A DNA stretch of 55,154 nucleotides from an uncultured archaeon. GTDB lineage: Archaea > Iainarchaeota > Iainarchaeia > Iainarchaeales > VGJJ01. Each line of letters opens with the position of its first letter. The first letter of the stretch is position 1. The translations under genes were made by a program, and so were the position numbers. Under the pieces are notes generated by a model. That model saw only the letters and a program-made list of their open reading frames with translations. It had not been told where the DNA came from and did not search any database. Below, piece after piece: positions 3,349 to 45,978 of the stretch. The stretch spans positions 1 through 55,154 of the forward strand of contig CAYIIU010000005.1 in assembly GCA_964363635.1 (NCBI GenBank). The letters run 5' to 3'.

Positions 3349-3497
3349 GAGCCCAAAAGATGACCGCCCCTAATAAGGAAGATGTGAGTGCGATTGCCAC
3401 AAAACAAATGTACAGGGAGCGTGGGGAGGGAGATTCAATACGCACTCCTTTTTCTTTTGATAAAAAAAAGTAGACGCCCAGTCAAAAAGAAAACTAG

Positions 3498-3519
3498 GGG
3501 GTATTGCGTGCAATACCCC
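3498..3519. repeat. Type-A hairpin (GGGGTATTGC-GT-GCAATACCCC)
   Basis: Perfect 10-bp inverted repeat; similar to hairpins at 3717, 18489 and 45917. Confidence 0.75.
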
Positions 3520-3537
3520 GTTTCTCGATTGGTCCAA

Positions 3538-3593
3538 GAACCTTTTAGAAAAAGGTTCATCAAAATTTCGATGAACCCTTTGTTAAAGGGTTC
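3538..3593. repeat. Head-to-head doublet of type-B REP-like palindromes
   Basis: GAACCTTTT-AGA-AAAAGGTTC-ATCAAAA followed by TTTCGAT-GAACCCTTT-GTT-AAAGGGTTC. Confidence 0.8.
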
Positions 3594-3603
3594 CGAAACT
3601 GGA

Positions 3604-3676
3604 CGGGGGGAGGGAGATTTGAACTCCCGTCTGCACCTCCCGAAGGTGCAATCCTACCAGGCTAGACTATCCCCCC
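3604..3676 (-). tRNA. tRNA-Pro(CGG)
   Basis: Acceptor GGGGGGA/TCCCCCC, anticodon arm GCACC-TT-CGG-GA-GGTGC, T-loop GTTCAAAT. Confidence 0.95.
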
Positions 3677-3704
3677 AACCAAATTATCCATATGGTTGAT
3701 CGGT

Positions 3705-3771
3705 GGACTACACTTAGCGGGATTTGCAATCCCGCAGTAGGCCGATACTAACTTTTGACCCAAGAACCCTT
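3705..3771. repeat. Composite palindromic element (GGACTAC, type-A hairpin, GTAGGC, degenerate TTTTGACC..GAACC)
   Basis: Aligns with 18478-18542 with a compensatory CTAC/GTAG versus CTAT/ATAG change. Confidence 0.7.
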
Positions 3772-3797
3772 AAAAATGGCATTTCACACGTTAGCGC

Positions 3798-5012
3798 ATG
3801 GAACCCTTCAAACGCATCACGCTCGTCTACGCTCTCTTTGCATTCGCCGCGGTGCTGATGGACCCCATCTTCTCCGTATATCTCGTGTCAAAAGGATACG
3901 ACACGGCGTGGATGACAATTATCCTCTCCTCGTTTTCACTCACCATGATTATGGTAGCCCCCCTCATCGGAGGAATTTCAGACACGTGGGGGAGACGGCC
4001 CCTCATTTTGGGAGGAATCGTACTCGAAATAGCGGTCGTGCTGTCGTACGCGCTGGTCACGCACCCCTTTGTCGTTTTCGCCACGCGCATCGCAGAAGCC
4101 ATAGCGTATGCGTGCGTCATCTTTGTTGCGATTGCCAAAATGGAAGACATTGTATCGAGTCAAAAGAAAAAAAATGTGGGAGAACAAGTCGGAAAAAGTT
4201 TATCGATTGGAAAACTCGGCCACGTATTTGGACCGCTCGCAGGAGGACTCATTGCCACCACATTCGGGGTCACCGCCCCCTTCTACGCAAGCGCCATTAT
4301 TTTAGTATTGTTAGGAGGATGGTATTTTTTTGAAAAACATAATGTTCATCCAAAACCGCCCTTTGAAAAATTGACATTCAACCCATTCCCGCGCATCAAA
4401 GAATATTTGAAAATAAAACCATTGAAAGGACTGGCCATTTTGGAAGGAGCGCACCAGTTCAGCATGCCCGTGCTGTTTGTGTTCATCCCATTATTCTTGG
4501 CGCGCGACTTGGGATTTACGCTCGCACAGGTAGGATTAGTCATTTTTGTGAGGGAATTTCCCATGCTCTTCCAATTTTGGGGTGGAAAACTCTCCGATAA
4601 ATGGGGGTCGCAAAAAACACTCTTGTTAGGAACCACACTCGCAGGAATAGCATTGCTCGCATTGTCGCAAGTACGCACGTTCGACTGGATTCTCCTCACG
4701 TCATTCTTGTTCGGACTCGGCACGAGCATGTTGGGAATCAGCGGACTCTCCCTGCTTTCGGGAATAGCACAGAAAACAAAACAAGAAGGAACGTTTTTGG
4801 GAGCACAGGTCGCGACCATCAAAATAGGGGCGTTCTTCGCCTTCCTCGTTGCGGGAACGGTCGTTCAAATCACGTCCATCCCCACCCTATTCCTCCTCAC
4901 GGGAGCAGTCATCCTATTAGGAGTCATTTTGGGAGAAAGTTTCCTAGGATTCCAATCCTTCCCTTTGCCCTCGCCCAAACGCCTAATCAATGGAATATTC
5001 CACCATCGTTGA
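3798..5012 (+). CDS. MFS transporter
   Basis: About 12 hydrophobic segments; motif A GGISDTWGRR and GKLSDKWGSQ. Confidence 0.92.
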   Translation: MEPFKRITLVYALFAFAAVLMDPIFSVYLVSKGYDTAWMTIILSSFSLTMIMVAPLIGGISDTWGRRPLILGGIVLEIAVVLSYALVTHPFVVFATRIAEAIAYACVIFVAIAKMEDIVSSQKKKNVGEQVGKSLSIGKLGHVFGPLAGGLIATTFGVTAPFYASAIILVLLGGWYFFEKHNVHPKPPFEKLTFNPFPRIKEYLKIKPLKGLAILEGAHQFSMPVLFVFIPLFLARDLGFTLAQVGLVIFVREFPMLFQFWGGKLSDKWGSQKTLLLGTTLAGIALLALSQVRTFDWILLTSFLFGLGTSMLGISGLSLLSGIAQKTKQEGTFLGAQVATIKIGAFFAFLVAGTVVQITSIPTLFLLTGAVILLGVILGESFLGFQSFPLPSPKRLINGIFHHR

Positions 5013-5079
5013 ACGTGAACAACTGACGAGGGTTTAAATTTTCGCTGACCCTTTTTGAAGAGTAAGGATTGTAAAAAAA

Positions 5080-7559: not shown

Positions 7560-7596
7560 ACACGCTCAACGGGGCGGGACGCTTAAAAATATACGT

Positions 7597-9171: not shown

Positions 9172-9176
9172 ATACC

Positions 9177-17425: not shown

Positions 17426-17524
17426 ATTCAATAGTACTACCAAAGGGTTATAGGAATTGGCTGGATTTGAACCCGCTTGAAAATTTTCCCTAGCTTTAAA
17501 ACGCTACTCTCAACCTTCGTCAGA

Positions 17525-17947
17525 ATGGCTTTACGCTTCTACATCGACACGTGCATCTGGAGGGACTACTTAGAGGAACGCTCGGACGGAATGAACGATT
17601 TGGGTCAAATAGCCCTGCACTTTATTGAAAATTGCTTAACGCACCATGCCGCTATTTTGTATTCTCAACTAGTTGGGGAAGAACTCAAGAATGCTCAACT
17701 TGATTGCTTTAATGAGATTAAACAACTGATGGGAAAGAACCTTCTTGAAATCTCCATTTCAGAAAACCAACTGAATGAAGCAAAGCAACTGGCGCAACTA
17801 AAAAAGATTTCAAAAAATGATGCCATTCATGCCATTCTCGCACGCGACAACAATGCCATCTTAATCACCCGCGATGTAGATTTTGAAGAACTATCAACCA
17901 TTACAAAATGGGAGAAGCCCGAAAACATTAGTTTTTCTTTGCTTTAA
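17525..17947 (+). CDS. PIN-domain protein (VapC-like toxin)
   Basis: YIDTCIW, DAIHAILA, LITRD.DF; start taken at ATG 17525. Confidence 0.88.
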   Translation: MALRFYIDTCIWRDYLEERSDGMNDLGQIALHFIENCLTHHAAILYSQLVGEELKNAQLDCFNEIKQLMGKNLLEISISENQLNEAKQLAQLKKISKNDAIHAILARDNNAILITRDVDFEELSTITKWEKPENISFSLL

Positions 17948-18230
17948 TGTCAGCCTCGATTTTATTAAAAATCTCTTCTCCACCCTTTCCATTCCGCCAT
18001 GCCAAAAATTCTTCATCGGTCTTAAAACGACCCTTCCCCTTCATACTCCCGTACAATTTGCGGACCCCTGCCAACGTTTTCTTCATCTGCTGCTCTTCCT
18101 CGGATTTTTTGAGTTTGTCCCGGATAGCATCGCGGATAAACTCCGTCTTCGTGGCGTAATGAAACTCCTTCATTACGGACGCAATCTTCCGAGCCATCGA
18201 AGACTCCAACTTTAAACTCACATTTTCCAT
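17928..18230 (-). CDS. Ribbon-helix-helix (CopG-like) protein, putative antitoxin
   Basis: N-terminal beta strand VSLKL followed by TKTEFIRDAIR. Confidence 0.8.
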   Translation of the reverse strand: MENVSLKLESSMARKIASVMKEFHYATKTEFIRDAIRDKLKKSEEEQQMKKTLAGVRKLYGSMKGKGRFKTDEEFLAWRNGKGGEEIFNKIEADIKAKKN

Positions 18231-18477
18231 ACTACTATGTATTACTTAGTGCTCCTTATAAAATGAGCGAAAAAAAGGCTAAAAAATGCCATTCCGAAAA
18301 ATAACACCCACTAGCCGTGAACGAACTCCCCAAGAAGATGGATTAAATCAACTCATCCAACAAAATTCGGCCTAATCTCAAAAAAAACTAGCGCGCAATG
18401 GAGATGAATCCCCTGCCAGCGGATGGGCTTTAAAAGCATTGTTTGACCGAATTTGAGTAGCATAAAGTCGCGCCGAA

Positions 18478-18542
18478 GGACTATTATCGGGGATTTCCAA
18501 AAATCCCCACATAGGCTTTTGATCGAACTTTTGCAAAAGTTC
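18478..18542. repeat. Composite palindromic element (type-A plus type-B hairpins) abutting the tRNA-Ile 5' end
   Basis: GGACTAT-TATC-GGGGATTT-CCAA-AAATCCCC-AC-ATAGGC-TTTTGATC-GAACTTTT-GC-AAAAGTTC. Confidence 0.8.
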
Positions 18543-18616
18543 GCACTGGTAGCTTAGCCTGGTAGAGCACCCGACTGATAATCGGGAGGTCGGAGGTTCA
18601 AATCCTCCCCGGTGCA
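18543..18616 (+). tRNA. tRNA-Ile(GAT)
   Basis: Acceptor GCACTGG/CCGGTGC, anticodon arm CCCGA-CT-GAT-AA-TCGGG, T-loop GTTCAAAT. Confidence 0.95.
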
Positions 18617-18868
18617 CTTCGAACATAAAAATAGGATTATTTTAGTTCGTGAGTTTGAGAATCTCACGAACCCCTCATCGGAGGCCGGCATTACTGTTTT
18701 CGGCTGCCAATTGAAAATCGAATTTTCAAGAATAAATCAAATCGTATCTTGAATTTCCGAATACATTTGGCAATGAGTGTTGGAATTAATTCCAACGGAA
18801 TCATTGTATGTAGAATACAGCATCAGAATATTTAATCTAGCTCCTCGATGCGCACCAGTTACCCACTA

Positions 18869-29767: not shown

Positions 29768-29806
29768 AGAAAATTCACGTGAACCATGGCTTAAAAATAG
29801 AAAGTG

Positions 29807-29834
29807 TTTTGACCAACCTTTTGAGAAAAGATTG
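29807..29834. repeat. Degenerate type-B REP-like palindrome
   Basis: TTTTGAC-CAACCTTTT-GAG-AAAAGATTG. Confidence 0.6.
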
Positions 29835-30037
29835 CGTCCCACAATGAATGAGAAAGTGCCGTATTTGGCAAATGGTGGGAGAATTTCAAGAGTGAAAAAT
29901 ACGTTTTAATACTCTCATACAATTTAGAATACGCTCCCAAAACTGCAGTCTTGAAAAAAGTTCAAGGCTCCCATTGAAATGCACCCATGAGTCGTCCGAA
30001 CCGTTGATGAAATCCAATAAAAAAGGTGGCCCTAGCT

Positions 30038-33595: not shown

Positions 33596-33737
33596 CCAAA
33601 TTCCATATGGTCGTTCGGAGTAAGGGTCACTTGCTCCGCAAGGACCCAGACGGAAAAAATATTACAGATAACACTTGTGGAGGGGGTTCCCTGTCCGGTT
33701 AACCTTTTGGGGGAAGCCGGATGGGGGCCTCGCCACC
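33594..33737. other. Structured intergenic region (three hairpins) between convergent genes
   Basis: GACCA/TGGTC; CGGAGTAAG/CTTGCTCCG; long G-U-rich stem GTGG..TCCGGTT/AGCCGGA..CCAC. Confidence 0.5.
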
Positions 33738-33752
33738 TATTCTCTTTCCAAA

Positions 33753-34295
33753 TTATAATTTCTTCTCCATCAACAATATTCCCGGTTGCTTTTGAAGTGG
33801 TCCAACAACTACAAAACCGAATCCTGCGTAGTATTGAATAAGTTTATTATTATCTTTGTGAACACTCAATTCGATTTTCGGAATTCCCTGTGCACGGGCG
33901 ATTCCTTCCGTAACATCCAGAAACGTTCGATAAATTTCTAGTCCGCTTGGATTTTCTTTCACGACACGACTATCATTGTTTTTGGTAGCATTAAAACGAA
34001 AAATTCTCTCTGGGGATAAATGAAAAAAGCTTTCACCGATCTCCTCAATTTCCCGCGTTCCGGGGCGCAATGCAAATGTCTTTATCACGTTTTTAGCCAC
34101 TTGACCGGAAATTGCCATTACCCCAATTGGATTCGTATAGAAACGAGCGAATTTCAATCGAGGAAGACCCTTTAAAAAAACAGAACTGGCGCGCAGCCTT
34201 GAAAAAGAAGATGATGAAATACGGCGCAGTGCCGGTTCAGCTGCGGACCTCCTCTTCTGCGATACTACACGAGTGGTCCTATTACGCCTTCTCAT
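33753..34295 (-). CDS. Arg-rich N-terminus plus degenerate GNAT-like domain
   Basis: C-terminal ARAQGIPKIELSV..DN..LIQYY..FGF resembles GNAT motif B. Confidence 0.6.
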   Translation of the reverse strand: MRRRNRTTRVVSQKRRSAAEPALRRISSSSFSRLRASSVFLKGLPRLKFARFYTNPIGVMAISGQVAKNVIKTFALRPGTREIEEIGESFFHLSPERIFRFNATKNNDSRVVKENPSGLEIYRTFLDVTEGIARAQGIPKIELSVHKDNNKLIQYYAGFGFVVVGPLQKQPGILLMEKKL

Positions 34296-34379
34296 GAACC
34301 TACTACCCCACCCGAATAAAAAAAACTACCCTTCAATGGCAGACATCCCTTAAAATAGCTTTTCGAACGTTTAACAGCT

Positions 34380-35702
34380 ATGATACGCACCCACACCTGC
34401 GGAGAACTGCGAAAGGCTCATACCGGACACGTGGTCACACTCGAAGGGTGGGTGGACACGTTCCGCGAGACGGGAAAAATATCCTTCATACTCATACGGG
34501 ACCGAACGGGAATCACGCAAGCATTTGTGAACAAGGAACTCACCGCAGCAAACAAAGCCATGCTCAAACACGAAACCGTGGTGCGAATTCAGGGAAAAGT
34601 CAATGCACGCCCCGCTAATCAAGTGCGCGCGGAAATGCCCACGGGAGAAATAGAATTGGAAGCCACGGTGATTACCATCCTCAATGAGGCCGAACAGCCA
34701 TTGCCCGTGGACTTGATGCCGGAGACCACGACCGGATTGGATAAGCGATTGGACTTTCGTTTCTTGGATGTGCGACGCGAGAAAGTGAAAAACATTTTCA
34801 CCATTCGAAGCAAAATTTTTGCGAAGACGGTGGAGTTTTTTGAAAAAGATGGATTCATCAGCATCCAAACCCCTAAATTGACGGCAGCAGGCGTGGAGAG
34901 CGGAGCCGAAGAATTCAAATTGCCTTATTTTGGAAAAGTTGCCTCATTGGCGCAAAGCCCCCAAATATACAAGCAAATGTTTGTTGTTTCAGGATTAGAA
35001 AAAGTGTACTCCATTGAACCCATTTTCCGCGCGGAGAAATCCCACACGACGAGACATTTAACCGAGTTCACCGGTATTGACTTTGAAATGGGATTCATCG
35101 AGAATGAAAATGATGTGATGGCCGTGATTGAAAAGTATTTTCACTTCTTGTTGAGCGCCGTGAAAACAGAATGCGCTCCGGAGCTGGACAAACTTGGAAT
35201 CGAAATTGATGTGCCGCACGAAATTCCTAAACTTTCGTTGCACGAAGCACGGAAGATTTTGGCCGCGAAAGGAAAAATCATCCCCGAAGACGATGACTTG
35301 GACGCCGAAGGGGAAAAAATGATTGGCGAGTATGTGAAGGAAACGTACAAATCCGATTTTGTTTTCATGCTCGATTACCCTTGGCAAAAAAGACCATTCT
35401 ACCACATGCGACCGGAAAACGATAAAACAAGCACCAAATCATTTGATTTATTGTACAAGGGAGTGGAGATTGGAACGGGAGCGCAACGAGAGCATCGCCT
35501 CGCGGTGTTGGAAGCGCAGTGCGCGGAGAAAGGAATTGACTTTTCAAAAATGACATTTTACCGCGATATTTTCCGCTATGGAGCCCCTCCGCATGGCGGT
35601 GTTGGATTAGGACTCGATCGTATCGTGAAGCAAATGCTCAATCTGGAAAACGTCAAAGAAGCCATTCTTTTGCCGAGAGATCCGGACAGACTGACGCCGT
35701 AG
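34380..35702 (+). CDS. aspS: Aspartyl-tRNA synthetase (archaeal-length catalytic core)
   Basis: LAQSPQIYKQ, FRAE..HT.RHL.EF, GAPPHGG.GLGLDR, PRDP.RL.P. Confidence 0.93.
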   Translation: MIRTHTCGELRKAHTGHVVTLEGWVDTFRETGKISFILIRDRTGITQAFVNKELTAANKAMLKHETVVRIQGKVNARPANQVRAEMPTGEIELEATVITILNEAEQPLPVDLMPETTTGLDKRLDFRFLDVRREKVKNIFTIRSKIFAKTVEFFEKDGFISIQTPKLTAAGVESGAEEFKLPYFGKVASLAQSPQIYKQMFVVSGLEKVYSIEPIFRAEKSHTTRHLTEFTGIDFEMGFIENENDVMAVIEKYFHFLLSAVKTECAPELDKLGIEIDVPHEIPKLSLHEARKILAAKGKIIPEDDDLDAEGEKMIGEYVKETYKSDFVFMLDYPWQKRPFYHMRPENDKTSTKSFDLLYKGVEIGTGAQREHRLAVLEAQCAEKGIDFSKMTFYRDIFRYGAPPHGGVGLGLDRIVKQMLNLENVKEAILLPRDPDRLTP

Positions 35703-35764
35703 AATTTTTATTTTCAAAAATTTTCCTTAGTTTTAAAACGCTTGTGGTACCTCAAGCGTGGCAA

Positions 35765-36121
35765 ATGACTATTCGTTCTTTCGGGGATCAAGAGTGGTTG
35801 GATGAGAAAGGAAATCATGTTCTCTTCATGAATATTTTATTCGATGAAACCGCCAAAAAAATAATCAACTTCAGCGTCATTCAATTCTTCAGGGATTCGA
35901 ATGGGAAGAAGCACCAAGTAATCAAATTCGATTTTTCCCACGGGTGCTACAATATCCATCGCTACTATTTGGGCGAAACAAACCGAACGGAGATGAACCA
36001 TATTGAATTAACACCCGAATTGTACCGAGAAGCAAAGAATATCGTCCGCCAAAATTGGAAAGACTATTCACTAAAATTCCGAGTGCGCTACTTCCCCGAC
36101 GAACTAAAAGGAGAACATTAA
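35765..36121 (+). CDS. Putative toxin (TumE/DUF6516/DUF7718-like)
   Basis: VIKFDFSHG..NIHRYY motif; paired with the downstream HTH gene; start uncertain. Confidence 0.6.
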   Translation: MTIRSFGDQEWLDEKGNHVLFMNILFDETAKKIINFSVIQFFRDSNGKKHQVIKFDFSHGCYNIHRYYLGETNRTEMNHIELTPELYREAKNIVRQNWKDYSLKFRVRYFPDELKGEH

Positions 36122-36138
36122 TATAGAACAAGGAGGTT

Positions 36139-36534
36139 ATGTGTTATATGGCTAAGAAGATAGACCCAACTAAAGTCCTTACCATTATTGTAGGCGGGAA
36201 CTCCGACAAGGACGATGACCGGCTTTTCAACGACCCCCACGAATGGAAAACGCACCCGCGGCACACGGTATATGCACGCACCTACGAAGAATTGCACGAA
36301 ATGCTTTCCCCCGCCAAGATGGACCTGCTCATCGAACTTATGAATTATGACCCGCAGAAAGAAGAAAATATTGGTTTCATCGCCCAGAAAACCAATAGGA
36401 AACGTGAGGCCATCTCCCGGGACCTCCACCGCTTAGCGACCATGAACCTCGTGAAACTAAAAAAAATGGGAAAAACAGTTTTCGTCTCGACCCCCTTCGA
36501 ATCCATCCAGATACAGTTCGCGCAGAAGACGTGA
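36139..36534 (+). CDS. HTH putative antitoxin (HVO_A0114-like)
   Basis: LSPAK..LL..., I..IA....R.REAISRDL..L....LV; GGAGGT RBS. Confidence 0.75.
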   Translation: MCYMAKKIDPTKVLTIIVGGNSDKDDDRLFNDPHEWKTHPRHTVYARTYEELHEMLSPAKMDLLIELMNYDPQKEENIGFIAQKTNRKREAISRDLHRLATMNLVKLKKMGKTVFVSTPFESIQIQFAQKT

Positions 36535-36555
36535 AAGCGCAAAATGCGCAACACA

Positions 36556-36819
36556 TCAATCGTACACGTTCTCGCGCTTCCCGACTTTTACCACTAAAAT
36601 GAGCAGTTTTCCTTGGTCAATATCCGCAATCACACGATAATCGCCCACGCGCATACGATAAAAGTCCACTCCAGAAAGTTTGAAAAAATAAATGAAGGGA
36701 TTTGATTTAGCACGTTCAAGGGAATTCTTAATGCGCTCCTGCATCAAGCGTTCTAATTTGAGAAATTGTTTTTCGGCCAACGGAGTAAATTCAATCGAAT
36801 GAATCACCAGGGGCTTCAT
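36556..36819 (-). CDS. relE: RelE/ParE family toxin
   Basis: A.KQF.KL, YRMRVGDYRVI, VGKRENVY. Confidence 0.92.
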   Translation of the reverse strand: MKPLVIHSIEFTPLAEKQFLKLERLMQERIKNSLERAKSNPFIYFFKLSGVDFYRMRVGDYRVIADIDQGKLLILVVKVGKRENVYD

Positions 36820-37040
36820 AACTTCATCTTCTTTTTCAATTCGTCGAAAGAAACGGATTTGCCATCCCGATAGTCTTTACGACCTTGCTCAATTTCCTTG
36901 AGGGTTTCTTCGTTGAGCAACTTATGGTCTTCGACTAAATCCCAAATCACTCCTTCGTAGGTGTCGCGGTCGTTCATCTTGTGTCTATCAAGCTCTTTCT
37001 TGAGTTCCACACTCACTTGAATGGATGTTTTGGCTGCCAT
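36816..37040 (-). CDS. RelB-like archaeal antitoxin
   Basis: TSIQVS..LK..L...K....TYE.VI..L; ATGA overlap with relE. Confidence 0.85.
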   Translation of the reverse strand: MAAKTSIQVSVELKKELDRHKMNDRDTYEGVIWDLVEDHKLLNEETLKEIEQGRKDYRDGKSVSFDELKKKMKL

Positions 37041-37103
37041 AGTACACTATAGAAGGCAATAGAATAAATAGGTATCTCGAAAAAACGACCCACAGATATC
37101 GGT

Positions 37104-37772
37104 TCACGGAGCAAGTCTTTTTTGCACTTCTTTTTCAAGAGTTTCTAGCGCGCCGTCTATTGAATCATTCAAATCCTTTACTAACTTATGCCGAAGAAGA
37201 AATCGAGCGTGGGGATAATTTGTAGTAAAATCAAGTGCATTTGCTACCTTATTTACTTGCCACGCTCGCTGAGACAAAAAACGCCGTGTATTTCGAATTC
37301 GAACTAAAAACCGATTCAAATATTTGGCGTCTTTTCCCTTAAAATAATAGTTCAACGCTTTTTGGTTTGATGCGATTTCAGATGATCCGAATTTCCAGCC
37401 CCAATTTCCCAATCCTTTAAGCACAAAAAGAGAATCCGCGGGCATTCTTTTTCTACGAACATCAAATACTTCTCGAATAAATGCGAACTGTGCTATATCA
37501 CAAAGGTCGCCAAGTTTTTTGGTATTTGACTCAAACAACGGTGCTACGGAAAGAATATCTTGAAGTTTTGCACGTTCAAAAAAAGGAGTCAATTCGCGAG
37601 CAGTATAACGCACTGACATCATTTGCAAAAGTGCTGGAATTCCCACCGACACAGCAGGGCGAGACCTAACACCTAACACGCTCTTCAGTCTGTGCCTTGT
37701 TTTCGCTTGTCGCTCACGGTTCAACCGTTTCCTCAAGACAGATACGCTATGAACCGCAAGTCTATTTGCCAT
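37104..37772 (-). CDS. Hypothetical basic protein (orphan)
   Basis: 222-aa frame, Arg-rich N-terminus, TTTAAA box about 25 nt upstream. Confidence 0.65.
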   Translation of the reverse strand: MANRLAVHSVSVLRKRLNRERQAKTRHRLKSVLGVRSRPAVSVGIPALLQMMSVRYTARELTPFFERAKLQDILSVAPLFESNTKKLGDLCDIAQFAFIREVFDVRRKRMPADSLFVLKGLGNWGWKFGSSEIASNQKALNYYFKGKDAKYLNRFLVRIRNTRRFLSQRAWQVNKVANALDFTTNYPHARFLLRHKLVKDLNDSIDGALETLEKEVQKRLAP

Positions 37773-38038
37773 CGTGGATGAACAGAGTCCGTATTTTAAA
37801 TCCTCTCGACCCCTTTACATATAGATGCATACCTTATTGAAACACGACGCGAGCGTTTCGCCCTCGGTTTTACTTGTACGCATCAACTCCAATCGGGCCA
37901 TTTCGTAGGCCCCATCCGAAATTGGGGAGATTTCCGCTGGAAATCTCCCGGCCTACCATCCCTTTCTCGGGCTGCCACGCTCAAAAAAGGCCAAATTTTT
38001 AACCAGAATAAACCTACAAACTACGAAACGGTGATACG

Positions 38039-39334
38039 ATGGAACGAAAAATGATACAGGAACTTTTAACACGAAAACACGAAAAAGCCCACATCAAAGG
38101 ATGGGTGAAGCGCAAGCGGGACTTCAAGGGAACGCTCATTTGGTTGATGCGCGACGGAAGCGGGGAAATGCAAGCTGTCTTGTCAAGCGAGAACATACAG
38201 GACAAAAAACAATACGAGCACGCACGCAAAGCCCTCGTTGAGAGTTCTGTAGAAATCGAAGGAACGATTAAAGCAGACGAACGCGCGCCCGGAGGAAAAG
38301 AAATACAAGTCACTCATGTAACGGTTTTACATTCGGGAGATGAGTTTCCCATTGGAAAAGACTTGAGTGAGGATTTCTTGCTGGATGTGAGACATTTGTG
38401 GATTCGCTCCACGAAGATGCAGCAAGGGCTGCGCGCGAGTGCGGCCGTGTTTGAAGCCTTCCATGATTTCTGCAAAAAAGACGGGTATTTGGAAGTGCAG
38501 TGCCCCATGTTTGTTTCCGGTGCCGTGGAAGGAGGCAATGAACTCTTTGATGTGGAATATTTTGGGAAGAAAGTCAATTTGACACAATCTTCGCAATTCT
38601 ACTTGGAAGTGTACGCTTCCGCGCTGGAAAAAGTGTACACCGTTGCCCCCTCGTTCCGAGCGGAACCCTCCCGCACACGCAGACATCTCACGGAATTCTG
38701 GCACGCCGAATGGGAAACGGCCTTTACGGGATTAGAGGATTTGATGGATTGGGAAGAACGCATGATCAAGCACGCGGCGAAGTATGTTTTGGACAAGGCC
38801 CCTGCCCAGCTTGAATACTTTGGACGAAAGCCTGAAGCATTGGAAAAAGTCGTGAAAAACAAATTCAAACGCTTTACATACGATGAAGTATTTGAAGTTG
38901 CGCGAAAAAAATTCCCTGAACTCAAATGGGGGGATGATTTGCAGGAGGCGCATGAACGCGAAATCACCAAGGATTATGACGTGCCTATTTTTGTGCACCA
39001 CTATCCTACGTCATTGAAACCATTTTATCATCGCCCCGACCCACGCAAACCAACCACCGTGTTGTGCGTAGACATGCTCGCGCCGGAAGGGTATGGAGAA
39101 ATCATTGGTTCAGGAGAACGCTGCTGGAAATATGAAGAGTTAGTTGGACGAATGAAACAAGCCAAATTGAAAGAAAAAGACTTCCAATGGTACGTGGACT
39201 TGCGAAAATATGGAAGCGTCCCCCACACGGGAGGGGGATTAGGATTGAGTCGACTCGCGATGTGGCTGTTCAAAATGGAGCACATCCGAGACACGGTAGG
39301 GTTTCCGCGGACGATGAATAGGATTGCGCCGTAG
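38039..39334 (+). CDS. asnS: Asparaginyl-tRNA synthetase
   Basis: RHLWIRS, LTQSSQFYLE, FRAE.S.T.RHLTEFW, APEGYGEIIG, WYVDLRKYGSVPH. Confidence 0.93.
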   Translation: MERKMIQELLTRKHEKAHIKGWVKRKRDFKGTLIWLMRDGSGEMQAVLSSENIQDKKQYEHARKALVESSVEIEGTIKADERAPGGKEIQVTHVTVLHSGDEFPIGKDLSEDFLLDVRHLWIRSTKMQQGLRASAAVFEAFHDFCKKDGYLEVQCPMFVSGAVEGGNELFDVEYFGKKVNLTQSSQFYLEVYASALEKVYTVAPSFRAEPSRTRRHLTEFWHAEWETAFTGLEDLMDWEERMIKHAAKYVLDKAPAQLEYFGRKPEALEKVVKNKFKRFTYDEVFEVARKKFPELKWGDDLQEAHEREITKDYDVPIFVHHYPTSLKPFYHRPDPRKPTTVLCVDMLAPEGYGEIIGSGERCWKYEELVGRMKQAKLKEKDFQWYVDLRKYGSVPHTGGGLGLSRLAMWLFKMEHIRDTVGFPRTMNRIAP

Positions 39335-39391
39335 CAGTGAGAGAAGAAAAATAATAACTGAAATGAAGATGAAAAAAGAAAAAAATTAGTA

Positions 39392-39425
39392 GAAGGGGAA
39401 AAGTTCCCCTTCGAATTCTTTTTTA
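39392..39425. terminator. Hairpin flanked by A/T tracts (likely bidirectional terminator)
   Basis: GAAGGGGAA-AAG-TTCCCCTTC then TTCTTTTTT, between convergent genes. Confidence 0.6.
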
Positions 39426-39438
39426 TTACAAAATTAAT

Positions 39439-40764
39439 TTATGGTGCGGGCAAAACAAATCCAACAACCAACGCGGGAGGATTTGATCCGGGAGCTGGAA
39501 CAGTTATTCCTGATTGATAAGAGCGAAATACCCCTGATCCATCTACATCGTCACCAGTCATCATTAGATACATGTCTTGGGTAGTTGGTGTAACTAATGA
39601 TTCTACATCAAAATTTCTAGTTCGATTAATAGAAGTATCATTGGGTTGCAGTGGTCGTGCAATGAACCCCCCGCCCACACCTGACTCAACAAGAGTATCT
39701 AAACCGGCATTATTACAAGGATCGGCATACTCCCCTGCGGTCAATGTTCTAAAATATTCTTGACCCGTTGAGCCAGAAGGAGAAGCGACATTGAAAAATC
39801 GGGCAGTGGCATATGCCACTCCAATTGGAGTGGACCCCGACGGAGTATACGTCCAATGAGTGGCTATTCCATAATCCGTAAAAGTATCCCTATCAGTAAC
39901 CGACCCACCAGTAACCGGTCCGATGCTAGAAAATGTTCCACCCATACATGTCCCCTGAATCGGCCCCAGCGAAAAGACTCGGTCTTGAAGGATAGGAGAA
40001 TTATACGAACTTGCATCGCTAAAATTAAACTGCAACCAGTGAAAATTATCCACGGATAGTGAATGAAACGCTCCGCTGAAAGTTAAGTCCATTGTGTGAA
40101 TACCGGGAGTAATAACAATTCCAGTTGGCGCATTGAGAGGACCTGTTGATGCACCACTCGCGAGTGGCCCGGAAAAGATAGGGGTACCATCCAGCGCAAT
40201 AGTATCTAACGTAACGGTCGTCGGGCCAAACGTGGGTATGATTGAGCCAATAACAATATTGTTCGACCCCGTGTTGGTCAATGTCCAACCATTGGTGGTG
40301 CTAGCATTAGCAACCGGTGAAAACAAAACCTGTGTCATCGGCGCCCAATCCACCGAAGCAAAGCTGGCCATGGACGGAGGTATAATTGGAATACATGAAC
40401 CAACTTCAATCGCACAGTTTGTACAAGTCAGATTTCCCCCGCTATAGAGGCTTGGATTGAAAGTGACGCATGTTCCATCTTGCGGAGGAGCGAATGCTGT
40501 ACCATCGCATGCTTCACCAGCATGCAATTGATTGGGTGGATTCCCGCATGTTGAAGGATTTCCGCCGCCCGTGCCGCCTAATGTGACTCGATTCTGGTAT
40601 TGCGCAAGATTGTTATTGATGATGTCGTTGGTCGAACCCGTCGAGCCAATGATAATCAGCAAAACAATAGTCGCGATGAGCACCGCGCCCCCAATCAAGA
40701 GCAAATATTCCAAGGCACCCTGTCCTTTAGTAGTTTTTTTTTCGCGTACGGAAAATCGATTCAT
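39439..40764 (-). CDS. Class III signal peptide (archaeal pilin-like) surface protein
   Basis: KKTTKG/QGALEYLLLIGGAVLIATIV; Cys module GEACDG..C..GNLTC..C; GAGGGTGA RBS. Confidence 0.85.
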   Translation of the reverse strand: MNRFSVREKKTTKGQGALEYLLLIGGAVLIATIVLLIIIGSTGSTNDIINNNLAQYQNRVTLGGTGGGNPSTCGNPPNQLHAGEACDGTAFAPPQDGTCVTFNPSLYSGGNLTCTNCAIEVGSCIPIIPPSMASFASVDWAPMTQVLFSPVANASTTNGWTLTNTGSNNIVIGSIIPTFGPTTVTLDTIALDGTPIFSGPLASGASTGPLNAPTGIVITPGIHTMDLTFSGAFHSLSVDNFHWLQFNFSDASSYNSPILQDRVFSLGPIQGTCMGGTFSSIGPVTGGSVTDRDTFTDYGIATHWTYTPSGSTPIGVAYATARFFNVASPSGSTGQEYFRTLTAGEYADPCNNAGLDTLVESGVGGGFIARPLQPNDTSINRTRNFDVESLVTPTTQDMYLMMTGDDVDGSGVFRSYQSGITVPAPGSNPPALVVGFVLPAP

Positions 40765-40870
40765 GTGCGTCACCCTCACGTCAGATAGTATTCACCAACT
40801 TTTTCCACTTTATAAACAATGATACTCGCCGACTAGACGGTTGGGCATACCGCACCGAGCGAAAACGGGA

Positions 40871-40966
40871 GAGGAGAAGGTATTCCATCGCCCCATGAGC
40901 AGGAGACAAGGGGCCCTTCCCTAAAATGCGGACAACCATCCCAAGGAAAATCCATTGGCCCTTTTT
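40871..40966 (-). pseudogene. Interrupted class III signal peptide remnant (KKGQ, 20-codon insert, GAMEYLLL)
   Basis: Peptide similarity to the adjacent pilin leader; hydrophobic stretch truncated. Confidence 0.4.
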
Positions 40967-41160
40967 ATTATCCGCATGAAAAAAAGGGGGAACGTTGAAC
41001 AATGTATTACTGATTGAACGTCGCACCAAAATTGCTTTTAAAAGCCCCCGCGTCTGATATGCAGAAATTCTCCTCACGAATGGTTGGGAGGGCGGCAATC
41101 TCCTCTGCCGCACTCTTTCCTTTCTTTTTATAAGGTCCATTTACACGTTTAACGGGTAGG

Positions 41161-41562
41161 ATGGTGAATTCCATGAAGAATATCCAATTGCTCATTCTAG
41201 CCACTTTTTTGGTCATACCCCTAGTGCACGCCAACGAATCGGTGGGACTGATTACCAATCCCCTGCGCTGGCTCGCAGAAGAAGCGGGGCAATTCGACTT
41301 TTCCATCCGCATCATCGTTTTTTTGTTCTCGGCCGCAATCGCAGCCATCGGATTCACCGCTTGGAGACGCACGCCCAACACGCGCGTCAAATGGATTGCC
41401 ATCGCATTCGGATTATTCGCATTCAAGTGGCTGCTGAAAGTCATGGATATGTTTGTGAGCTCGGGAGCATTCTTCCCCGACCACGCGGAGAATGTGATAG
41501 AACTCATTTCACTGGCTCTTATCGCATACACCATCTTCGCCCCACGCCCGACAGGAAACTAA
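41161..41562 (+). CDS. Small multi-TM membrane protein
   Basis: Signal-like N-terminus plus three hydrophobic helices; co-directional with a wHTH gene. Confidence 0.7.
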   Translation: MVNSMKNIQLLILATFLVIPLVHANESVGLITNPLRWLAEEAGQFDFSIRIIVFLFSAAIAAIGFTAWRRTPNTRVKWIAIAFGLFAFKWLLKVMDMFVSSGAFFPDHAENVIELISLALIAYTIFAPRPTGN

Positions 41563-41575
41563 CGAGGAAAAAATC

Positions 41576-42169
41576 ATGGCTGATGATGCAGGGTTTGAAA
41601 AAGCACTCCAGCTTGATGTACGCAAACGGATTTACACGGAAATAGAACAATCCCCCGGACTGCATTTCAGGGAGATTCAGAGGCGCACTATTTTAGCGGT
41701 GGGAAGCCTGCAGTACCACTTGGATTATCTGCAAAAACACCACATCATCCGCACGCAAAAAGAAGGAAAATTCGTGCGCTATTATTCCGTGCGCGGACTC
41801 CAAGTTGGAAACACGGAGAACATGCACGCGGGGCAGAACACGATGGCTTCGCTCCGACATGAGAGCACGCGGAAGATTGTATTATTTTTACTGCACGAAA
41901 CGCGCGCCAACAACGAGCGCATCGCGCAGGAAATACACTTGTCTCCCTCCACCACGAGCTGGCACTTGGACAAATTGTGCGAATCGGGCGTGCTCAAGAA
42001 GGAACGCGCGGGGAGAAAAAGTTTTTTTACGCTCACCAATCCGGAAGAGGCAAGAAAGTTGCTCGTGACATTCAAACAAAGCTTCTTCGATCAGGCTGTG
42101 GATAACTTTGTCGAACTCACGCAATCACTTGCCGAGCCGGTGCAAACGCCGGACGAAAACACGCCGTGA
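41576..42169 (+). CDS. Double winged-HTH transcriptional regulator (archaeal ArsR/MarR-like)
   Basis: PGLHFREI.R....GSLQYHL..L and LSPSTTSWHL.KL. Confidence 0.88.
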   Translation: MADDAGFEKALQLDVRKRIYTEIEQSPGLHFREIQRRTILAVGSLQYHLDYLQKHHIIRTQKEGKFVRYYSVRGLQVGNTENMHAGQNTMASLRHESTRKIVLFLLHETRANNERIAQEIHLSPSTTSWHLDKLCESGVLKKERAGRKSFFTLTNPEEARKLLVTFKQSFFDQAVDNFVELTQSLAEPVQTPDENTP

Positions 42170-42204
42170 TTTTTTATTCGTTTTTGAATCAAAATACTTC
42201 GTCA

Positions 42205-42651
42205 TTAAACGCCCGAAATCTGCGCCACGTCGCCGGGAATAATCCCCCATTGCCTCGCCACGCCGGGGTTGAATTCCAGCACATACTGGGCGTTGCCCGA
42301 AGGGATGTACACTTTGCACGGGTCCTTTTCGCAGGGAAGCATCGTCTGAATGTCCACGACCTTCCCTTGAGCGTCCATCCAAATAGCATCCAATGGAATG
42401 AGGGTGTTTTTCATCCAGAATCCATAAATGTCTTCCTTCTCAAACACGAAAAGCACCCCCGCATTTCCCGATAAAGCCTGGCGGTACATCAGTCCTTGAG
42501 CACGTTCCTCAGAAGTGGAGGCGACTTCCACAATCACGCACCGCTCGCCGAAACAAACTTTAGGGATGGAAGAATAGGGGGATGCGGATAAACACCCTAA
42601 CAAGAAAACCAAAAATAAAAAAATAACTAAAACGAAAGAAAGGGATTTCAT
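42205..42651 (-). CDS. DUF192 family protein
   Basis: VEVA...ERAQGLMYR, FWMKNTLIPLD, YVLE.N.G. Confidence 0.9.
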   Translation of the reverse strand: MKSLSFVLVIFLFLVFLLGCLSASPYSSIPKVCFGERCVIVEVASTSEERAQGLMYRQALSGNAGVLFVFEKEDIYGFWMKNTLIPLDAIWMDAQGKVVDIQTMLPCEKDPCKVYIPSGNAQYVLEFNPGVARQWGIIPGDVAQISGV

Positions 42652-42708
42652 GGAATGTAAACCCTGTTCACCAATAAATAGATGTTGTTGAGAGCCAAAT
42701 AAATAACG

Positions 42709-43902
42709 CTATTTATTGGAAATAATCTCAATCACATCGCGATTTTTGAGGGTGTGGTCCTTTCCCAAGAGCATGCGGGTTTTCACGTCCACCGCTTTAA
42801 TAAAATTCTTCCCGAAATCCGTATGCAGACGGAATGCAAAATCGAGCGTGGTGGAGTGCGGGGGCATCAAGTAGCAATCAGGGAGAACATTACCGTTTTT
42901 ATCGACAAGGCCTTTCGTGCCGCCGGGAAAAATAGCCACGTATTTCAACGAGGAAAAAACGGTTTCATCCAATACGCGCTGCACGCCCGTGCCTGAAAAG
43001 GGAATCAATACTTTTTGGCGGATATAATTCAACGCCTGCCCCTGCGCCTCATTGAGGGTTTTTTTGGGAGCAAAATCCGCCTGTCCCGGAATGTACTCAA
43101 TCATTTCTCCCTTGGCGGCTTTTTTCAACGTGAGCTCGGCTTCGGATGAACAGGGGATAATCAACAAATGGGAGAATTGCTTCTTCATCTTCTCCACATT
43201 TTCTTTGGCATGCGGCAAATCCACTTTGTTCGCAGCAATCACCATGGGTTTGGATATTTTTCTCAATTCATGGATGAACAAGCGCAAATCTTCGGGCGTC
43301 CAACCCAACGCACGCTTCTCCGTCAATTTGGCATGAAACAACGCTCCATCGACTTGTTTTTCCGTCACTCCCAATCCAGAGAGAATTTTGGAAAGACCTT
43401 CCACGGTTTGCTGCCGGCTCTGCGCGGGGGAGCGGGAAAACTTTGAAAAATTGCTGTTCAAAATCCCCAGCATCCACAATTCTAATTCTTCTTCGAGAAA
43501 TAAAACGTCCTTGCATGGGTCATGCGAACCGCTTTCAACAGCCTCGCCTTTTTCGTTCGTACTGCCGCTCGCATCCACCACATGAATCAATACATCCGCT
43601 TGCCTCAAATCATCCAAAAACTTGTTTCCCAAACCCTTTCCTTCATGCGCGCCCGGAACGAGTCCTGCAACGTCAATCATTTCCACGGGAACAAAGCGCG
43701 TGTGGTTGATGCAATAGCCCGAACGGGGGTTGCACTGCGTGTTGAACTCTTTATCCACACATTCAACACGTACGAAACCAACACCTTTGTTGGGTTCAAT
43801 CGTGGTGAACGGATACGCCGCGCGCGCGACGTCAATCAAGGTTGCCGCAGCAAAAAAGGTTGACTTTCCCGATGAGGGACACCCAACAAGACCTACTAAC
43901 AT
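42709..43902 (-). CDS. ychF: Obg-family ATPase/GTPase YchF (archaeal type, TGS domain)
   Basis: [46 protein letters not shown]. Confidence 0.93.
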
Positions 43903-43987
43903 ATCGGAACCTCGGCGGTTTGGGGGGTGTCCATAGGATGAAATCCCCTGAAATAGTATTATTAATATGTCAGAAAAGTATCCGCTT

Positions 43988-44016
43988 TTTTGATTGAACT
44001 TTTTTCTAAAAAGTTC
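43988..44016. repeat. Type-B REP-like palindrome
   Basis: TTTTGATT-GAACTTTTT-TCT-AAAAAGTTC. Confidence 0.75.
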
Positions 44017-44025
44017 GAAAGATAA

Positions 44026-44547
44026 CTATATTTTGCCTTTCTCCCCATAATATTCATGAAGCTGTTTTCCTGTCCAAGGCTTCGTCTGCTCCATCGTGAA
44101 TCCTAATTTTTCAACATACTGTTTGAGGATTTCAATACTGGGCGCTTCTATTTCCAATACCGTTGGAATTCCGGGAGGCGTATCAATATCAAAATGAACA
44201 TTTCCTAATTGGTAGGACATGCGATGCTTTTGAGTTACCGCATTTTTCTGCATCCCCATTTCCGTTAAAATTTTCTCAGTTACTTCAAAGGATGAAACAG
44301 ATACTTCCCATTCATCCGCAACTTTAGCCACATCTTGAGACAGCCCCTTCTTGAGTGTCAATTCCACTTTATCACCGTGCTTGCGGAGTCGGAGCATTTT
44401 TCCATCTTTTTTCAATCGCTCATCGGAGAAATCGTATTTCCCCCCATCAATCATTCCATCAGATGTTTTCTTAGCACCCCACTTTTCAAGTTTGGCGACG
44501 ACCTCAGAAACGTTGATTTCCAAAATCTTGAGTTCAATTTCTTTCAT
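44026..44547 (-). CDS. CYTH-domain protein (class IV adenylate cyclase-like)
   Basis: EIELK, LRLR, LT.K, K.R..Y, LEIE. Confidence 0.88.
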   Translation of the reverse strand: MKEIELKILEINVSEVVAKLEKWGAKKTSDGMIDGGKYDFSDERLKKDGKMLRLRKHGDKVELTLKKGLSQDVAKVADEWEVSVSSFEVTEKILTEMGMQKNAVTQKHRMSYQLGNVHFDIDTPPGIPTVLEIEAPSIEILKQYVEKLGFTMEQTKPWTGKQLHEYYGEKGKI

Positions 44548-44549
44548 AA

Positions 44550-45191
44550 TCACACCATTCTCGCATTATTGAATTCTTTGACCAGCTTATCCGTTCCCTC
44601 GCTGTTGATGCATTGCTCCAACACCGAAGGTTTGGCGGTGATTTGACACCCTAATGCAAAGGCTTTCGCCACGTGCTCGGGTGACTGCAGCGAGGCTGCG
44701 AGAACATGCGCATCCAATTCATGCGCGTCAAACGCATCCATCATGTCTTCGATTTGTTCCCACGGGTCAATCTTGGCATCGATCATTCGACCGACGTACG
44801 GGGCAATGTAGTGCCCGCCCGCAAACGCGGCAATGATCCCCTGCGCGGCGGAAAAAACGGCCGTGAAACACAATTCAATTTTGTCATGGTTGAGTGTGGG
44901 GGCGATGGAGAAACCATTCCGGTCCGCGGGAATCTTGATGATGGCTTCAGGGAGCATCTCGTGAATGGTTCGCGCATCCTCCAACAATTCGTCGGGGGTT
45001 TCTCCCGTGGCTTGGACCATAATCAATTGCTCCTTGTTCAAGAGCATGGAAAGCTTCTGCAAATGCTCAAAACGATTGACAGGTTTTGCCGCAGAGAGGA
45101 GAAGAGGATTCGTGGTCACGCCCGTAACAAAGGGCTGTTTGAGCCACTTTTCAGCCTCTAGAATGTTGGCCGTGTCGACGAAGATGGTCAT
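44550..45191 (-). CDS. fsa: Transaldolase family protein, fructose-6-phosphate aldolase type
   Basis: DTAN, GVTTNP, IKIP Schiff-base Lys; FSA-type Gln (MVQ) and Tyr (APYVGR). Confidence 0.8.
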   Translation of the reverse strand: MTIFVDTANILEAEKWLKQPFVTGVTTNPLLLSAAKPVNRFEHLQKLSMLLNKEQLIMVQATGETPDELLEDARTIHEMLPEAIIKIPADRNGFSIAPTLNHDKIELCFTAVFSAAQGIIAAFAGGHYIAPYVGRMIDAKIDPWEQIEDMMDAFDAHELDAHVLAASLQSPEHVAKAFALGCQITAKPSVLEQCINSEGTDKLVKEFNNARMV

Positions 45192-45263
45192 AGATACGTG
45201 AAAATGCTTCACAATCATTAAAAATGGGATATCTAGCGTAAATGGGCAAGTGAGGAAAATAGG

Positions 45264-45845
45264 ATGAAAATTGGAGTGGATTTGGACGATGTTCTGATTG
45301 ATCTGAACCGGTCGCTCTCTCTCTTCCACAATGCTAAATTTGGCACAACCTACGACATAGAAGACGTGCGGAGCTTTGAACTCGAAAAGGTGTGGAATTG
45401 CACCACGGAAGAAATGATCCGGAGGGTAAATATTTTCTATAAAATCCATCGACCGCATCGCATTATGACTATTGACGGAGCAGTCGAAACGCTCAATCGA
45501 TTAAAAAATAAAAATGAATTAGTCGTCATTACTGGGAGACCCCCTTCGGTTGCAGGCAAGACCGAGGAAACAATAGCATATCACTTTCCCAACATATTCA
45601 AGGATATCTATTACACCAACTTTTTTTCAAAACGAGAACAAGCGGTGACAAAGGCAGATATTTGCCAGCAAAAATCGATTGATATTTTTATTGAAGACAA
45701 TTTTGAATGGGCCAATCAAATTGCCGAAAAAGGGATTCCAGTACTCCTGTTAGATGCCCCTTGGAATCAACTCCCAATTAATAACCCTAAAATCGCCCGC
45801 GTTCATAATTGGAAAGAAATTGAACAGAAAATTGAAAAAAAATAA
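45264..45845 (+). CDS. 5'(3')-deoxyribonucleotidase-like HAD hydrolase
   Basis: IGVDLDDVL, ITGR, K, FIEDN, PWN, RV.NW.EI. Confidence 0.85.
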   Translation: MKIGVDLDDVLIDLNRSLSLFHNAKFGTTYDIEDVRSFELEKVWNCTTEEMIRRVNIFYKIHRPHRIMTIDGAVETLNRLKNKNELVVITGRPPSVAGKTEETIAYHFPNIFKDIYYTNFFSKREQAVTKADICQQKSIDIFIEDNFEWANQIAEKGIPVLLLDAPWNQLPINNPKIARVHNWKEIEQKIEKK

Positions 45846-45852
45846 AATCTAG

Positions 45853-45978
45853 AATTCGATTCCCTTGCGTGCATATATCTGCATTCACGCCGGTTTCGCC
45901 CGGCGGAGACGATATAGGAGGATTGCAAGCAATCCCCCAGCTTTTCAAAATTCGATTCCCTTGCGTGCATATATCTGC
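45853..45978. repeat. Exact 30-bp direct repeat of the cobO 3' end, flanking a 66-bp two-hairpin insert
   Basis: AATTCGATTCCCTTGCGTGCATATATCTGC at 45853-82 and 45949-78. Confidence 0.9.

Follow-up and report, generated by a model that had tools for sequence, protein, structure and literature searches.

The DNA examined here (the window) is the entire 55,154-bp contig C5 of the 60-contig, 1.29-Mb, 89.6%-complete genome of an uncultured archaeon (G000). Two types of hairpin, A and B, recur in its spacers: beside the genes for tRNA-Pro(CGG) and tRNA-Ile(GAT), on either side of a ribonucleotide reductase gene, in the CYTH-GTPase spacer and at the 3′ end of cobA. The proteins of the window are archaeal (GatE, a class III signal peptide, HVO-type helix-turn-helix domains) and the nearest named relatives are metagenome-assembled genomes of Candidatus Iainarchaeum, so the assignment to the DPANN archaea stands.

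The two hairpin types were followed through G000, its congeners (14 or 13 at the two tRNA sites), 41 related genomes (in which the Y1_Tnp transposase family was set against type B), 151 genomes of the phylum (for the type B pattern) and the viral contigs of IMG/VR. Genes were called crudely as longest open reading frames (ORFs), and all ORF-based counts below (933 3′ ends and 917 5′ ends) rest on these calls.

The hairpin modules

A type B element is 28–34 nt long and is made up of a conserved heptamer and a perfect palindrome with a T-run/A-run core, a stem of 9–12 bp and a loop of about 3 nt. The genome holds 122 convincing copies with 104 distinct palindromes; the heptamer is TTTTGAT in 73 of them and TTTCGCC or TTTTCGC in 27. 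There is covariation, as all four Watson–Crick pairs are found at each of the five outer stem positions. Spacers make up 11.8% of the genome and host 99 of the copies. The elements also come as head-to-head pairs and tandem arrays, and no target duplication or target motif flanks the copies, apart from one extra T. Of the 151 sampled genomes of the phylum, 51 (in 26 of 62 genera) have the pattern, and the reversed control has no match in any genome. It is further found in 66 stretches of IMG/VR contigs with 28% G+C, where the outer stem pair is complementary in 58 of 69 copies. In other families of the order we observed B in tandem arrays (with a 42-nt period in G018) and at contig ends, the loci being G018:C3:66407-66559, G023:C23:1009-1247 and contig starts of G047.

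Type A is a GC-rich hairpin that stands in one of two conserved frames. In the first it is enclosed, as (G)GACTAC-n-hairpin-n-GTAGGC(C); in the second it is preceded by a CCAAATTATCCATATGGTCGYTCGG frame, which we term E. The 22 A2 loci defined by their flanks all have perfect stems of 7–10 bp, built from 19 distinct arms. Stems of at least 8 bp lie between true flanks in 38 of 518 cases, versus 2 of 1642 for reversed control flanks.

The set has at least five modules, A and B among them. Small T-arm-like hairpins directly 3′ of tRNA genes form another. A further module, F-C, runs from TTTTGAC through a long T/A palindrome to an ending that mimics a T-loop, and is confined to the genus (12 of 16 congeners, none of 24 other genera). 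At the gathering scores of Rfam 15 only three tRNAs pass in the window and no family does for A, B or the further modules; permissive scans of both tRNA loci also gave nothing credible for A or B. Judged by eye, C/D-box, H/ACA and bulge-helix-bulge readings of the A frame do not fit.

A second repeat of G000, about 150–190 nt long, carries two other hairpins (ATAGGGGC..GCCCCTAT and CCGCCGGTC..GACCGGCGG). It is found both at contig ends and within contigs, for example at C37:713-867, C26:1600-1754 and C45:7419-7573 and at the starts of C29, C39, C44 and C47. Since it lies at many contig ends it probably interrupts the assembly, and it may be the genome's true element of the PATE kind (palindrome-associated transposable element) or the MITE kind (miniature inverted-repeat transposable element).

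Gene ends and orthologous sites

The modules gather beside stable-RNA genes in this group of tiny archaea from groundwater. A GC-rich perfect hairpin is present within 80 nt at 26 of the 46 tRNA 3′ ends and at 19 of the 45 tRNA 5′ ends, whereas the same count gives 36 of 933 ORF 3′ ends, 25 of 917 ORF 5′ ends and 49 of 3000 random windows. Hairpin units next to tRNAs are found in both orientations. In 12 of 46 tRNAs the palindrome of B terminates at position +1 (offsets −2 to +1), the heptamer being always distal; the palindrome centre then lies about 10 nt, and the heptamer 20–32 nt, before +1. Four more tRNAs have variant palindromes at +1 when judged by eye, and B is found at the +1 of tRNA-Ile in G031 also, a genome from a different family of this order. 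In reverse complement, frame E adjoins +1 in four tRNAs, including tRNA-Pro of the window, and in part in two more. A–B pairs occur between two tRNA genes, e.g. from Lys-TTT to Lys-CTT on C25, and the RNase P RNA gene, which is present in the genome, has E, A and B downstream.

Blocks that contain A are bounded by a duplicate of the terminal segment of their host gene, which therefore stays intact. Local direct repeats of at least 13 nt number 75 genome-wide and are mostly tRNA ends. Read in the orientation of the tRNA, the layout is tRNA, block and then a second copy of 13–18 nt, from the AATC of the T-loop to the 3′ end. Start-to-start spacing of the copies is 93–184 nt and the inserts measure about 70–170 nt. 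Twelve loci carry this T-loop-to-3′-end repeat: Ser-GGA, Trp, Ser-CGA, an uncalled tRNA-like locus on C23, Lys-CTT, Ile-TAT, Pro-GGG, Arg-TCT, Leu-GAG, Val-TAC, Arg-GCG and Pro-CGG of the window (15 of 16 letters). Four loci (Pro-TGG, Ser-GGA, Arg-CCG and Ser-TGA) instead have a repeat from the 5′ end to the D-loop. The final letters of the block before the second tRNA-end copy are conserved, GTGCGT-ATTG or GTGCGT-TCYG, and look like the opening half of a T-loop. Each duplicate in a congener agrees with that species' own variant of the tRNA.

A protein gene of the window, cobA, has such a duplicate as well: a perfect repeat of 30 nt runs to the stop codon. Across the genomes with a filled cobA site the duplicates are 30–33 nt long; the 30-nt and 33-nt repeats are perfect and hence recent. 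Since the distal copy has kept the ancestral TTC TAG context, it is the new copy that now forms the working gene end. The duplicated gene ends are marks of gene-preserving insertion and not of a static signal, and the nested copies described below are insertion signatures too. MITEs, which have terminal inverted repeats akin to those of a resident transposon and a short target duplication of fixed length, are no match: the blocks have no terminal inverted repeats, and their duplicates vary from 13 to 33 nt and end at a gene terminus. Direct repeats from tRNA loop to tRNA end around an intact gene are what a tyrosine-recombinase element flanked by att sites shows.

Modules have been gained, lost and exchanged at orthologous sites among congeners. 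Among 14 congeners, the leader of tRNA-Ile keeps a conserved CTTTAAAAGCATTC TATA box, and the spacer between box and tRNA differs. It is free of modules and 25–32 nt long in G002, G016 and G005, holds A and B as in the window in G014, another hairpin with B in six genomes, a reversed A with a small hairpin in G012, G009 and G004, and a further form in G001. In G012 a B element is nested inside the loop of A, and G009 has the same site without B; the same nesting is seen at C1:3933 of G000. The trailer of tRNA-Pro(CGG), compared in 13 congeners, is empty in three (G002, G010, G013), has the block and the second tRNA-end copy in six, has an A1-type hairpin only in three and is cut by a contig end in one. 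The 3′ end of cobA is filled, with the duplicated gene end, in G000 and two of nine relatives and empty in the other seven, which include the two closest relatives (87% and 85% protein identity). The CYTH-GTPase spacer measures 123 nt with B here and 40–52 nt without it in four congeners that share the gene order. Together with the terminal-segment duplicates, these differences in occupancy point to the modules being insertional cassettes.

Contigs from four DNA runs, which cover positions 29000–46100 thinly, contain no junction from which an element is missing. The B element at 43988 is spanned by contigs of X2, X4 and X8, and 45853–45978 by one of X2. One contig of X8, a groundwater run, joins 33651 (the end of the E frame and hairpin) to 45947 (the stop codon of cobA); 5 other letters separate the two, and the shorter side has only 33 letters. 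This may reflect a different hairpin block at cobA in a related strain, or an artefact induced by repeats.

Table 1. Hairpin modules and associated features along the window (strand “.”, not assigned)
Feature	Positions	Strand	Remarks
tRNA-Pro(CGG), T-loop AATC to 3′ end: second copy (15/16 nt)	3420..3435	-	Bounds the inserted block; 16-nt repeat with 3604-3619
F-C module: pseudo-T-loop end, degenerate long T/A palindrome, TTTTGAC-type T-rich stretch	3436..3493	-	Pattern match 3466-3487
Type A1 hairpin, GGGGTATTGC type	3498..3519	.	10-bp stem
B element: heptamer TTTTGAT and palindrome	3538..3565	-	9-bp stem; reversed copy
B element: TTTCGAT and GAACCC palindrome	3566..3593	+	Head to head with B at 3538
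tRNA-Pro(CGG)	3600..3677	-	
E frame (CCAAATTATCCATATGG..CGG), GGACTAC, A2 hairpin, GTAGGCC	3680..3743	+	Hairpin 3717-3735, 8-bp stem; adjoins tRNA-Pro 5′ end, divergent orientation
TTTTGAC and half-palindrome containing a canonical CTTAAAAA TATA box	3753..3776	+	TATA box about 26 nt before the ATG (3798) of a major facilitator superfamily (MFS) gene
A2 unit: GACTATTATC, hairpin, ACATAGGC	18475..18516	+	Hairpin 18489-18508, 8-bp stem
B element	18517..18543	+	Palindrome terminates on tRNA-Ile position +1
tRNA-Ile(GAT)	18543..18617	+	
Imperfect B-like element	29807..29838	+	Between divergent RsmB-like and ribonucleotide reductase genes
E frame and GC-rich imperfect hairpin	33596..33650	+	Directly 3′ of the ribonucleotide reductase stop codon
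A-like 11-bp hairpin between GTAGGCC and GGCCTAC	37903..37958	.	Hairpin 37925-37949
B element in the CYTH-GTPase spacer	43988..44016	+	Absent in four congeners of the same gene order
Copy of the final 30 nt of cobA	45853..45882	-	Original gene end, ancestral TTC TAG context retained
Inserted block: small T-arm-like hairpin, type A hairpin, TTTT	45883..45948	+	T-arm-like 45888-45905; type A 45920-45935, 7 bp perfect, longer if one A.C is allowed
Identical 30 nt, now the working cobA 3′ end	45949..45978	-	cobA 45945-46580

Much of this agrees with a first-pass annotation of the window. All of the hairpins that it placed are present, with the reservation that the one at 29807 is imperfect and the one at 18645–18671 stands without the family flanks. 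Both types far exceed chance, as shown by the strict B pattern (3 matches in the window, 0.00 in 100 shuffles) and by the GGGATT..AATCCC core (2, against 0.03 in shuffles). Compensatory change, which it had noted, extends to the 19 arms of the 22 A2 loci and the 104 palindromes of B, and the two orientations that it noted recur beside tRNAs. It was right that at two loci, cobA and tRNA-Pro, a type A hairpin lies between duplicated gene 3′ ends, that a multi-copy, structured, non-autonomous family is present, and that no enzyme gene for the repeats lies within the window; the filled and empty orthologous sites bear out its reading of such a family. It had the two types bracketing tRNA-Ile, where A and B lie upstream only, and it missed the E frame and hairpin at 33596–33650, the conserved frames around A and the F-C module at 3436–3493.

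Three further features of G000 deserve mention. At 17477–19312, PIN-domain genes and some 1 kb of additional DNA separate the Dus gene from tRNA-Ile and extend past it, and in most congeners tRNA-Ile follows Dus after about 100–250 nt or less. The ribonucleotide reductase large subunit (30026–33595) has an intein with a LAGLIDADG homing endonuclease domain (Pfam). Outside the window, a 114-nt tandem repeat with perfect 49-nt cores (C20:15780-15942) apparently lies within coding sequence.

Possible mechanisms and competing explanations

The reading that we prefer, and hold with about even confidence, is that blocks with A or F-C are portable hairpin cassettes which insert at the ends of stable-RNA genes and duplicate the terminus, probably by means of tyrosine recombinases, and that B is a separate portable 5′ element. 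A and B would then be modules of a lineage-wide set of short, hairpin-forming, non-coding cassettes. These would settle in DNA that is transcribed and discarded, or otherwise non-essential, beside stable-RNA genes: in tRNA leaders and trailers, in the RNase P RNA trailer and at a few ORF 3′ ends. Site-specific recombination in the T-loops or D-loops of tRNAs would place the A and F-C blocks. B would be self-contained, with a gene start right behind its palindrome, and would also spread as an orientation-neutral intergenic repeat. No HUH enzyme would take part. The two types behave differently and need not form one system.

The genome encodes six Phage_integrase (tyrosine recombinase) proteins, one Xer-like and five of 425–503 aa, and two of these genes stand beside tRNA genes. 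From the five long recombinases and the conserved T-loop-like right end of the blocks we infer site-specific recombination at tRNA loops, and the A and F-C blocks are probably placed by tyrosine recombinases. Within the genus, the four congeners without F-C (G004, G009, G010, G013) are the four without a match to a long integrase, a co-occurrence of 12/12 and 0/4. Tyrosine recombinases integrate elements at tRNA genes and leave direct repeats from tRNA loop to tRNA end with the gene intact, as seen here, and att-flanked remnants that lack an integrase (cis-mobilizable elements) occur beside such integration. G000 itself has long integrases, and also larger elements that carry integrase genes and tRNA-end repeats of this kind, at tRNA-Glu (C38-C15) and at the tRNA-Tyr end on C29 and C39. 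The blocks described here differ in being inserts of about 70–170 nt made of hairpin modules, in their spread over more than ten tRNAs and a protein gene end, and in that each duplicate matches its own target. A casposase or a reverse transcriptase was discarded as the enzyme, as no Cas1 and no RVT_1 match is found in the 89.6%-complete genome.

At tRNA-Tyr, the 3′-terminal 16 nt recur several times downstream, exactly or with one mismatch (C29:11244-16326 and C39:1730-9657). The repeats separate small gene cassettes, which resembles tandem integrated cassettes at one tRNA.

For B, the viral contigs are informative. In IMG/VR contigs, 20 of 61 distinct B copies have an ORF of 45 codons or more that starts −3 to +23 nt behind the palindrome, versus 3 of 61 with such a start on the heptamer side. 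These ORF starts, joined with the tRNA +1 rule, suggest that B is a portable 5′ element; most likely it is a promoter or a hairpin with which the transcript opens. Putative mobile promoters are homologous promoter pieces upstream of unrelated genes, and B is similarly one short conserved element upstream of unrelated tRNAs and of unrelated ORFs in viral contigs. It differs from them in that B, a putative promoter only, is unlike the canonical TATA box of the genome, and in that most genomic copies have no gene behind them. Wobble asymmetry, as a test of the transcribed strand, gave 11 sense and 23 antisense among 93 mismatches in a set that contains false candidates.

The hairpin of A followed by the T-run that opens B resembles a stop signal, and from its layout an A–B pair between tRNA genes may act as a stop-start cassette, A and the T-run additionally ending transcription. 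As to termination in general, TTTT follows 16 of the 26 tRNA-trailer hairpins, only the 36 ORF 3′ ends counted above have a hairpin and the units face both ways.

Two kinds of conserved sequence adjoin B. In G000, a unit of about 165 nt, bounded by TCATT..GTCATT, is conserved in ten copies (C2:15107-15218, C2:25400-25514, C2:33817-33931, C3:14810-14920, C9:1544-1658, C35:5969-6081 and four more) and starts with a reversed B element. The ten units match the HgcC RNA (Rfam RF00062) over its full length, yet score below the Rfam threshold (37.3 bits at best against a gathering score of 50), which does not establish them as members. In AT-rich viral contigs, GC-rich and apparently structured stretches common to several contigs are conserved directly behind B, at loci L189, L208 and L213; L199, L234 and L235; L203, L211 and L227; and L228 and L229. 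These are possible small RNA genes.

Several observations weigh against our preferred reading. The correlation of F-C with integrases rests on related genomes that are 79–92% complete, the two integrase-linked elements examined have no A or F-C modules at their ends, and a generic integrase model leaves unexplained why each duplicate matches its own tRNA. The hairpins at orthologous tRNA-Ile leaders keep perfect stems while the letters differ, a possible sign of host selection and not turnover. As for B, its copies fall in tandem, convergent and divergent spacers 53, 20 and 26 times, where spacer length predicts 52.8, 18.2 and 28.0, and ORF starts are not in excess on either side of it in G000 (18 and 27 of 122, where 19.9 would be expected). 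The spacing between heptamer and tRNA +1 is variable, at 26 to 32 nt, and heptamers of the GC type do not resemble a TATA box. In this genome the canonical TATA box is TTTAAAA, centred at −26 (−29 to −23) before mostly leaderless genes. The ten HgcC-like units are in the opposite direction, on the heptamer side of B.

The spacer distribution and the lack of an ORF-start excess rule B out as a general mRNA promoter or terminator in G000. The idea that loss of RNase P had forced leaderless transcription of tRNAs was rejected because the RNase P RNA is present.

Of the rival explanations, the one that fares best is that the modules are host-selected and essentially immobile signals of transcription or processing. 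B would be a promoter of tRNAs and small RNAs or a leader hairpin for RNase P, A with a T-run would be a terminator, and differences between species would be divergence with compensatory change. The fixed position of B at tRNA +1 in 12 of 46 tRNAs, found again in another family, speaks for it, as do the perfect stems that persist at the tRNA-Ile leaders, where G013, G010, G007 and G003 share the order hairpin-TAACGC-heptamer-palindrome-tRNA-Ile and show compensatory changes in the stem. The T-runs after tRNA-trailer hairpins and the conservation of the B motif across the phylum and in viral contigs would also fit. We nevertheless consider it doubtful. A static signal is hard to square with tRNA-Ile being module-free in 3 of 14 congeners and tRNA-Pro in 3 of 13, with the ancestral TATA box retained upstream of the modules at tRNA-Ile, with most copies of B near no gene start and neutral in orientation, with units beside tRNAs facing both ways, or with the insertion signatures left by nested copies and duplicated terminal segments.

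It is less likely again that the duplicated gene ends are only worn-down att scars of once-larger integrated elements, and that the hairpins are unrelated sequence which accumulated later in this dispensable DNA. Larger integrase elements with tRNA-end repeats do exist in this genome, at the tRNA-Glu and tRNA-Tyr loci named above. However, the blocks are homologous, share a common module order and are of similar size (93–184 nt start to start) at more than ten tRNAs and in several species, which random decay would not yield, and the perfect cobA repeats are recent.

The first-pass annotation had favoured a mechanism in the manner of repetitive extragenic palindromic (REP) elements or of PATEs derived from IS200/IS605, in which single-stranded hairpins with a conserved 5′ guide motif are cut and moved by a Y1 HUH transposase acting in trans; this we now regard as very improbable. 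Bacterial REP/REPIN elements go with RAYT (Y1 HUH) enzymes, and their motif is GTAG. B is REP-like in its length, its conserved 5′ motif and palindrome, its many intergenic copies, frequent inverted pairs and tandem arrays, and its lack of target duplication. It is unlike REP elements in its heptamer, which differs from GTAG, in its perfect stems with T/A cores, in its fixed position at tRNA +1, in its occurrence in an archaeal lineage and viral contigs, and in having no co-occurring Y1 gene.

The genome does have one intact IS200-type Y1_Tnp gene (C2:965-1435, locus L001, 156 aa). Its own flanking hairpins are unlike A and B, neither type is adjacent to it, and no TnpB zinc-ribbon match was found in the genome. 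Among the 41 related genomes Y1_Tnp (PF01797) is present in 8 and B in 22, with no correspondence. G003 (38 copies of B; 96% complete, 9 contigs), G011 (33), G023 (27) and also G012 are rich in B and have no Y1_Tnp, and G001, G017, G029 and G037 have Y1_Tnp and no B.

PATEs of haloarchaea carry two palindromes near their ends that are related to a resident IS605-type element, and cause no target duplication; those of Haloquadratum moved despite tnpA genes that are pseudogenes, and small SMR-A repeats insert into PATE palindromes (PMC3119063). Like the repeats described here, they bear palindromes, lack a transposase and vary between strains, and the insertion of B into the loop of A recalls that of SMR-A. 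The differences are that the only IS200-type element of G000 has unrelated hairpins and that A-containing blocks are flanked by duplications of 13–33 nt. Target duplication, which PATEs lack by definition (PMC3119063), is absent around B and present around the A-containing blocks, so the PATE mechanism is unsupported for the latter.

An analogy of B with integron attC sites, from the letters AAC..GTT, was dropped, as B is far shorter than attC.

What mobile cassettes would mean

A bolder version of our preferred reading, which we offer tentatively and well below even confidence, is that these are a so far undescribed kind of miniature mobile cassette. It would consist of 70–170 nt of stacked hairpins, without genes and without terminal inverted repeats, that home to tRNA genes, in the T-loop or D-loop, and to the final codons of one protein gene or more, and duplicate the stretch from the entry point to the gene end, so that the gene survives. 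Their own stop (A and the T-run) and start (B) would rewire tRNA expression in streamlined DPANN genomes, and B would be a portable archaeal promoter shared with viruses. The titles and abstract beginnings returned by a literature search describe no such elements in this lineage. A census of MITEs gives very high densities of MITEs in some DPANN genomes (PMC11602168).

The genomes of DPANN archaea are very small and densely packed, and in this one exchangeable hairpin modules surround over half of the tRNA genes. Duplicated gene ends give a clean marker by which insertions could be dated computationally. Should B be a true promoter, it would represent a second, non-canonical promoter class common to hosts and viral contigs, and would be useful for annotating small RNAs and for linking viruses to their hosts. 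Eukaryotic retroelements that target tRNA genes follow a safe-haven strategy. Should the modules be mobile stop-start cassettes directed at the ends of tRNA genes, they would form an archaeal parallel to that strategy and a new source of promoter turnover.

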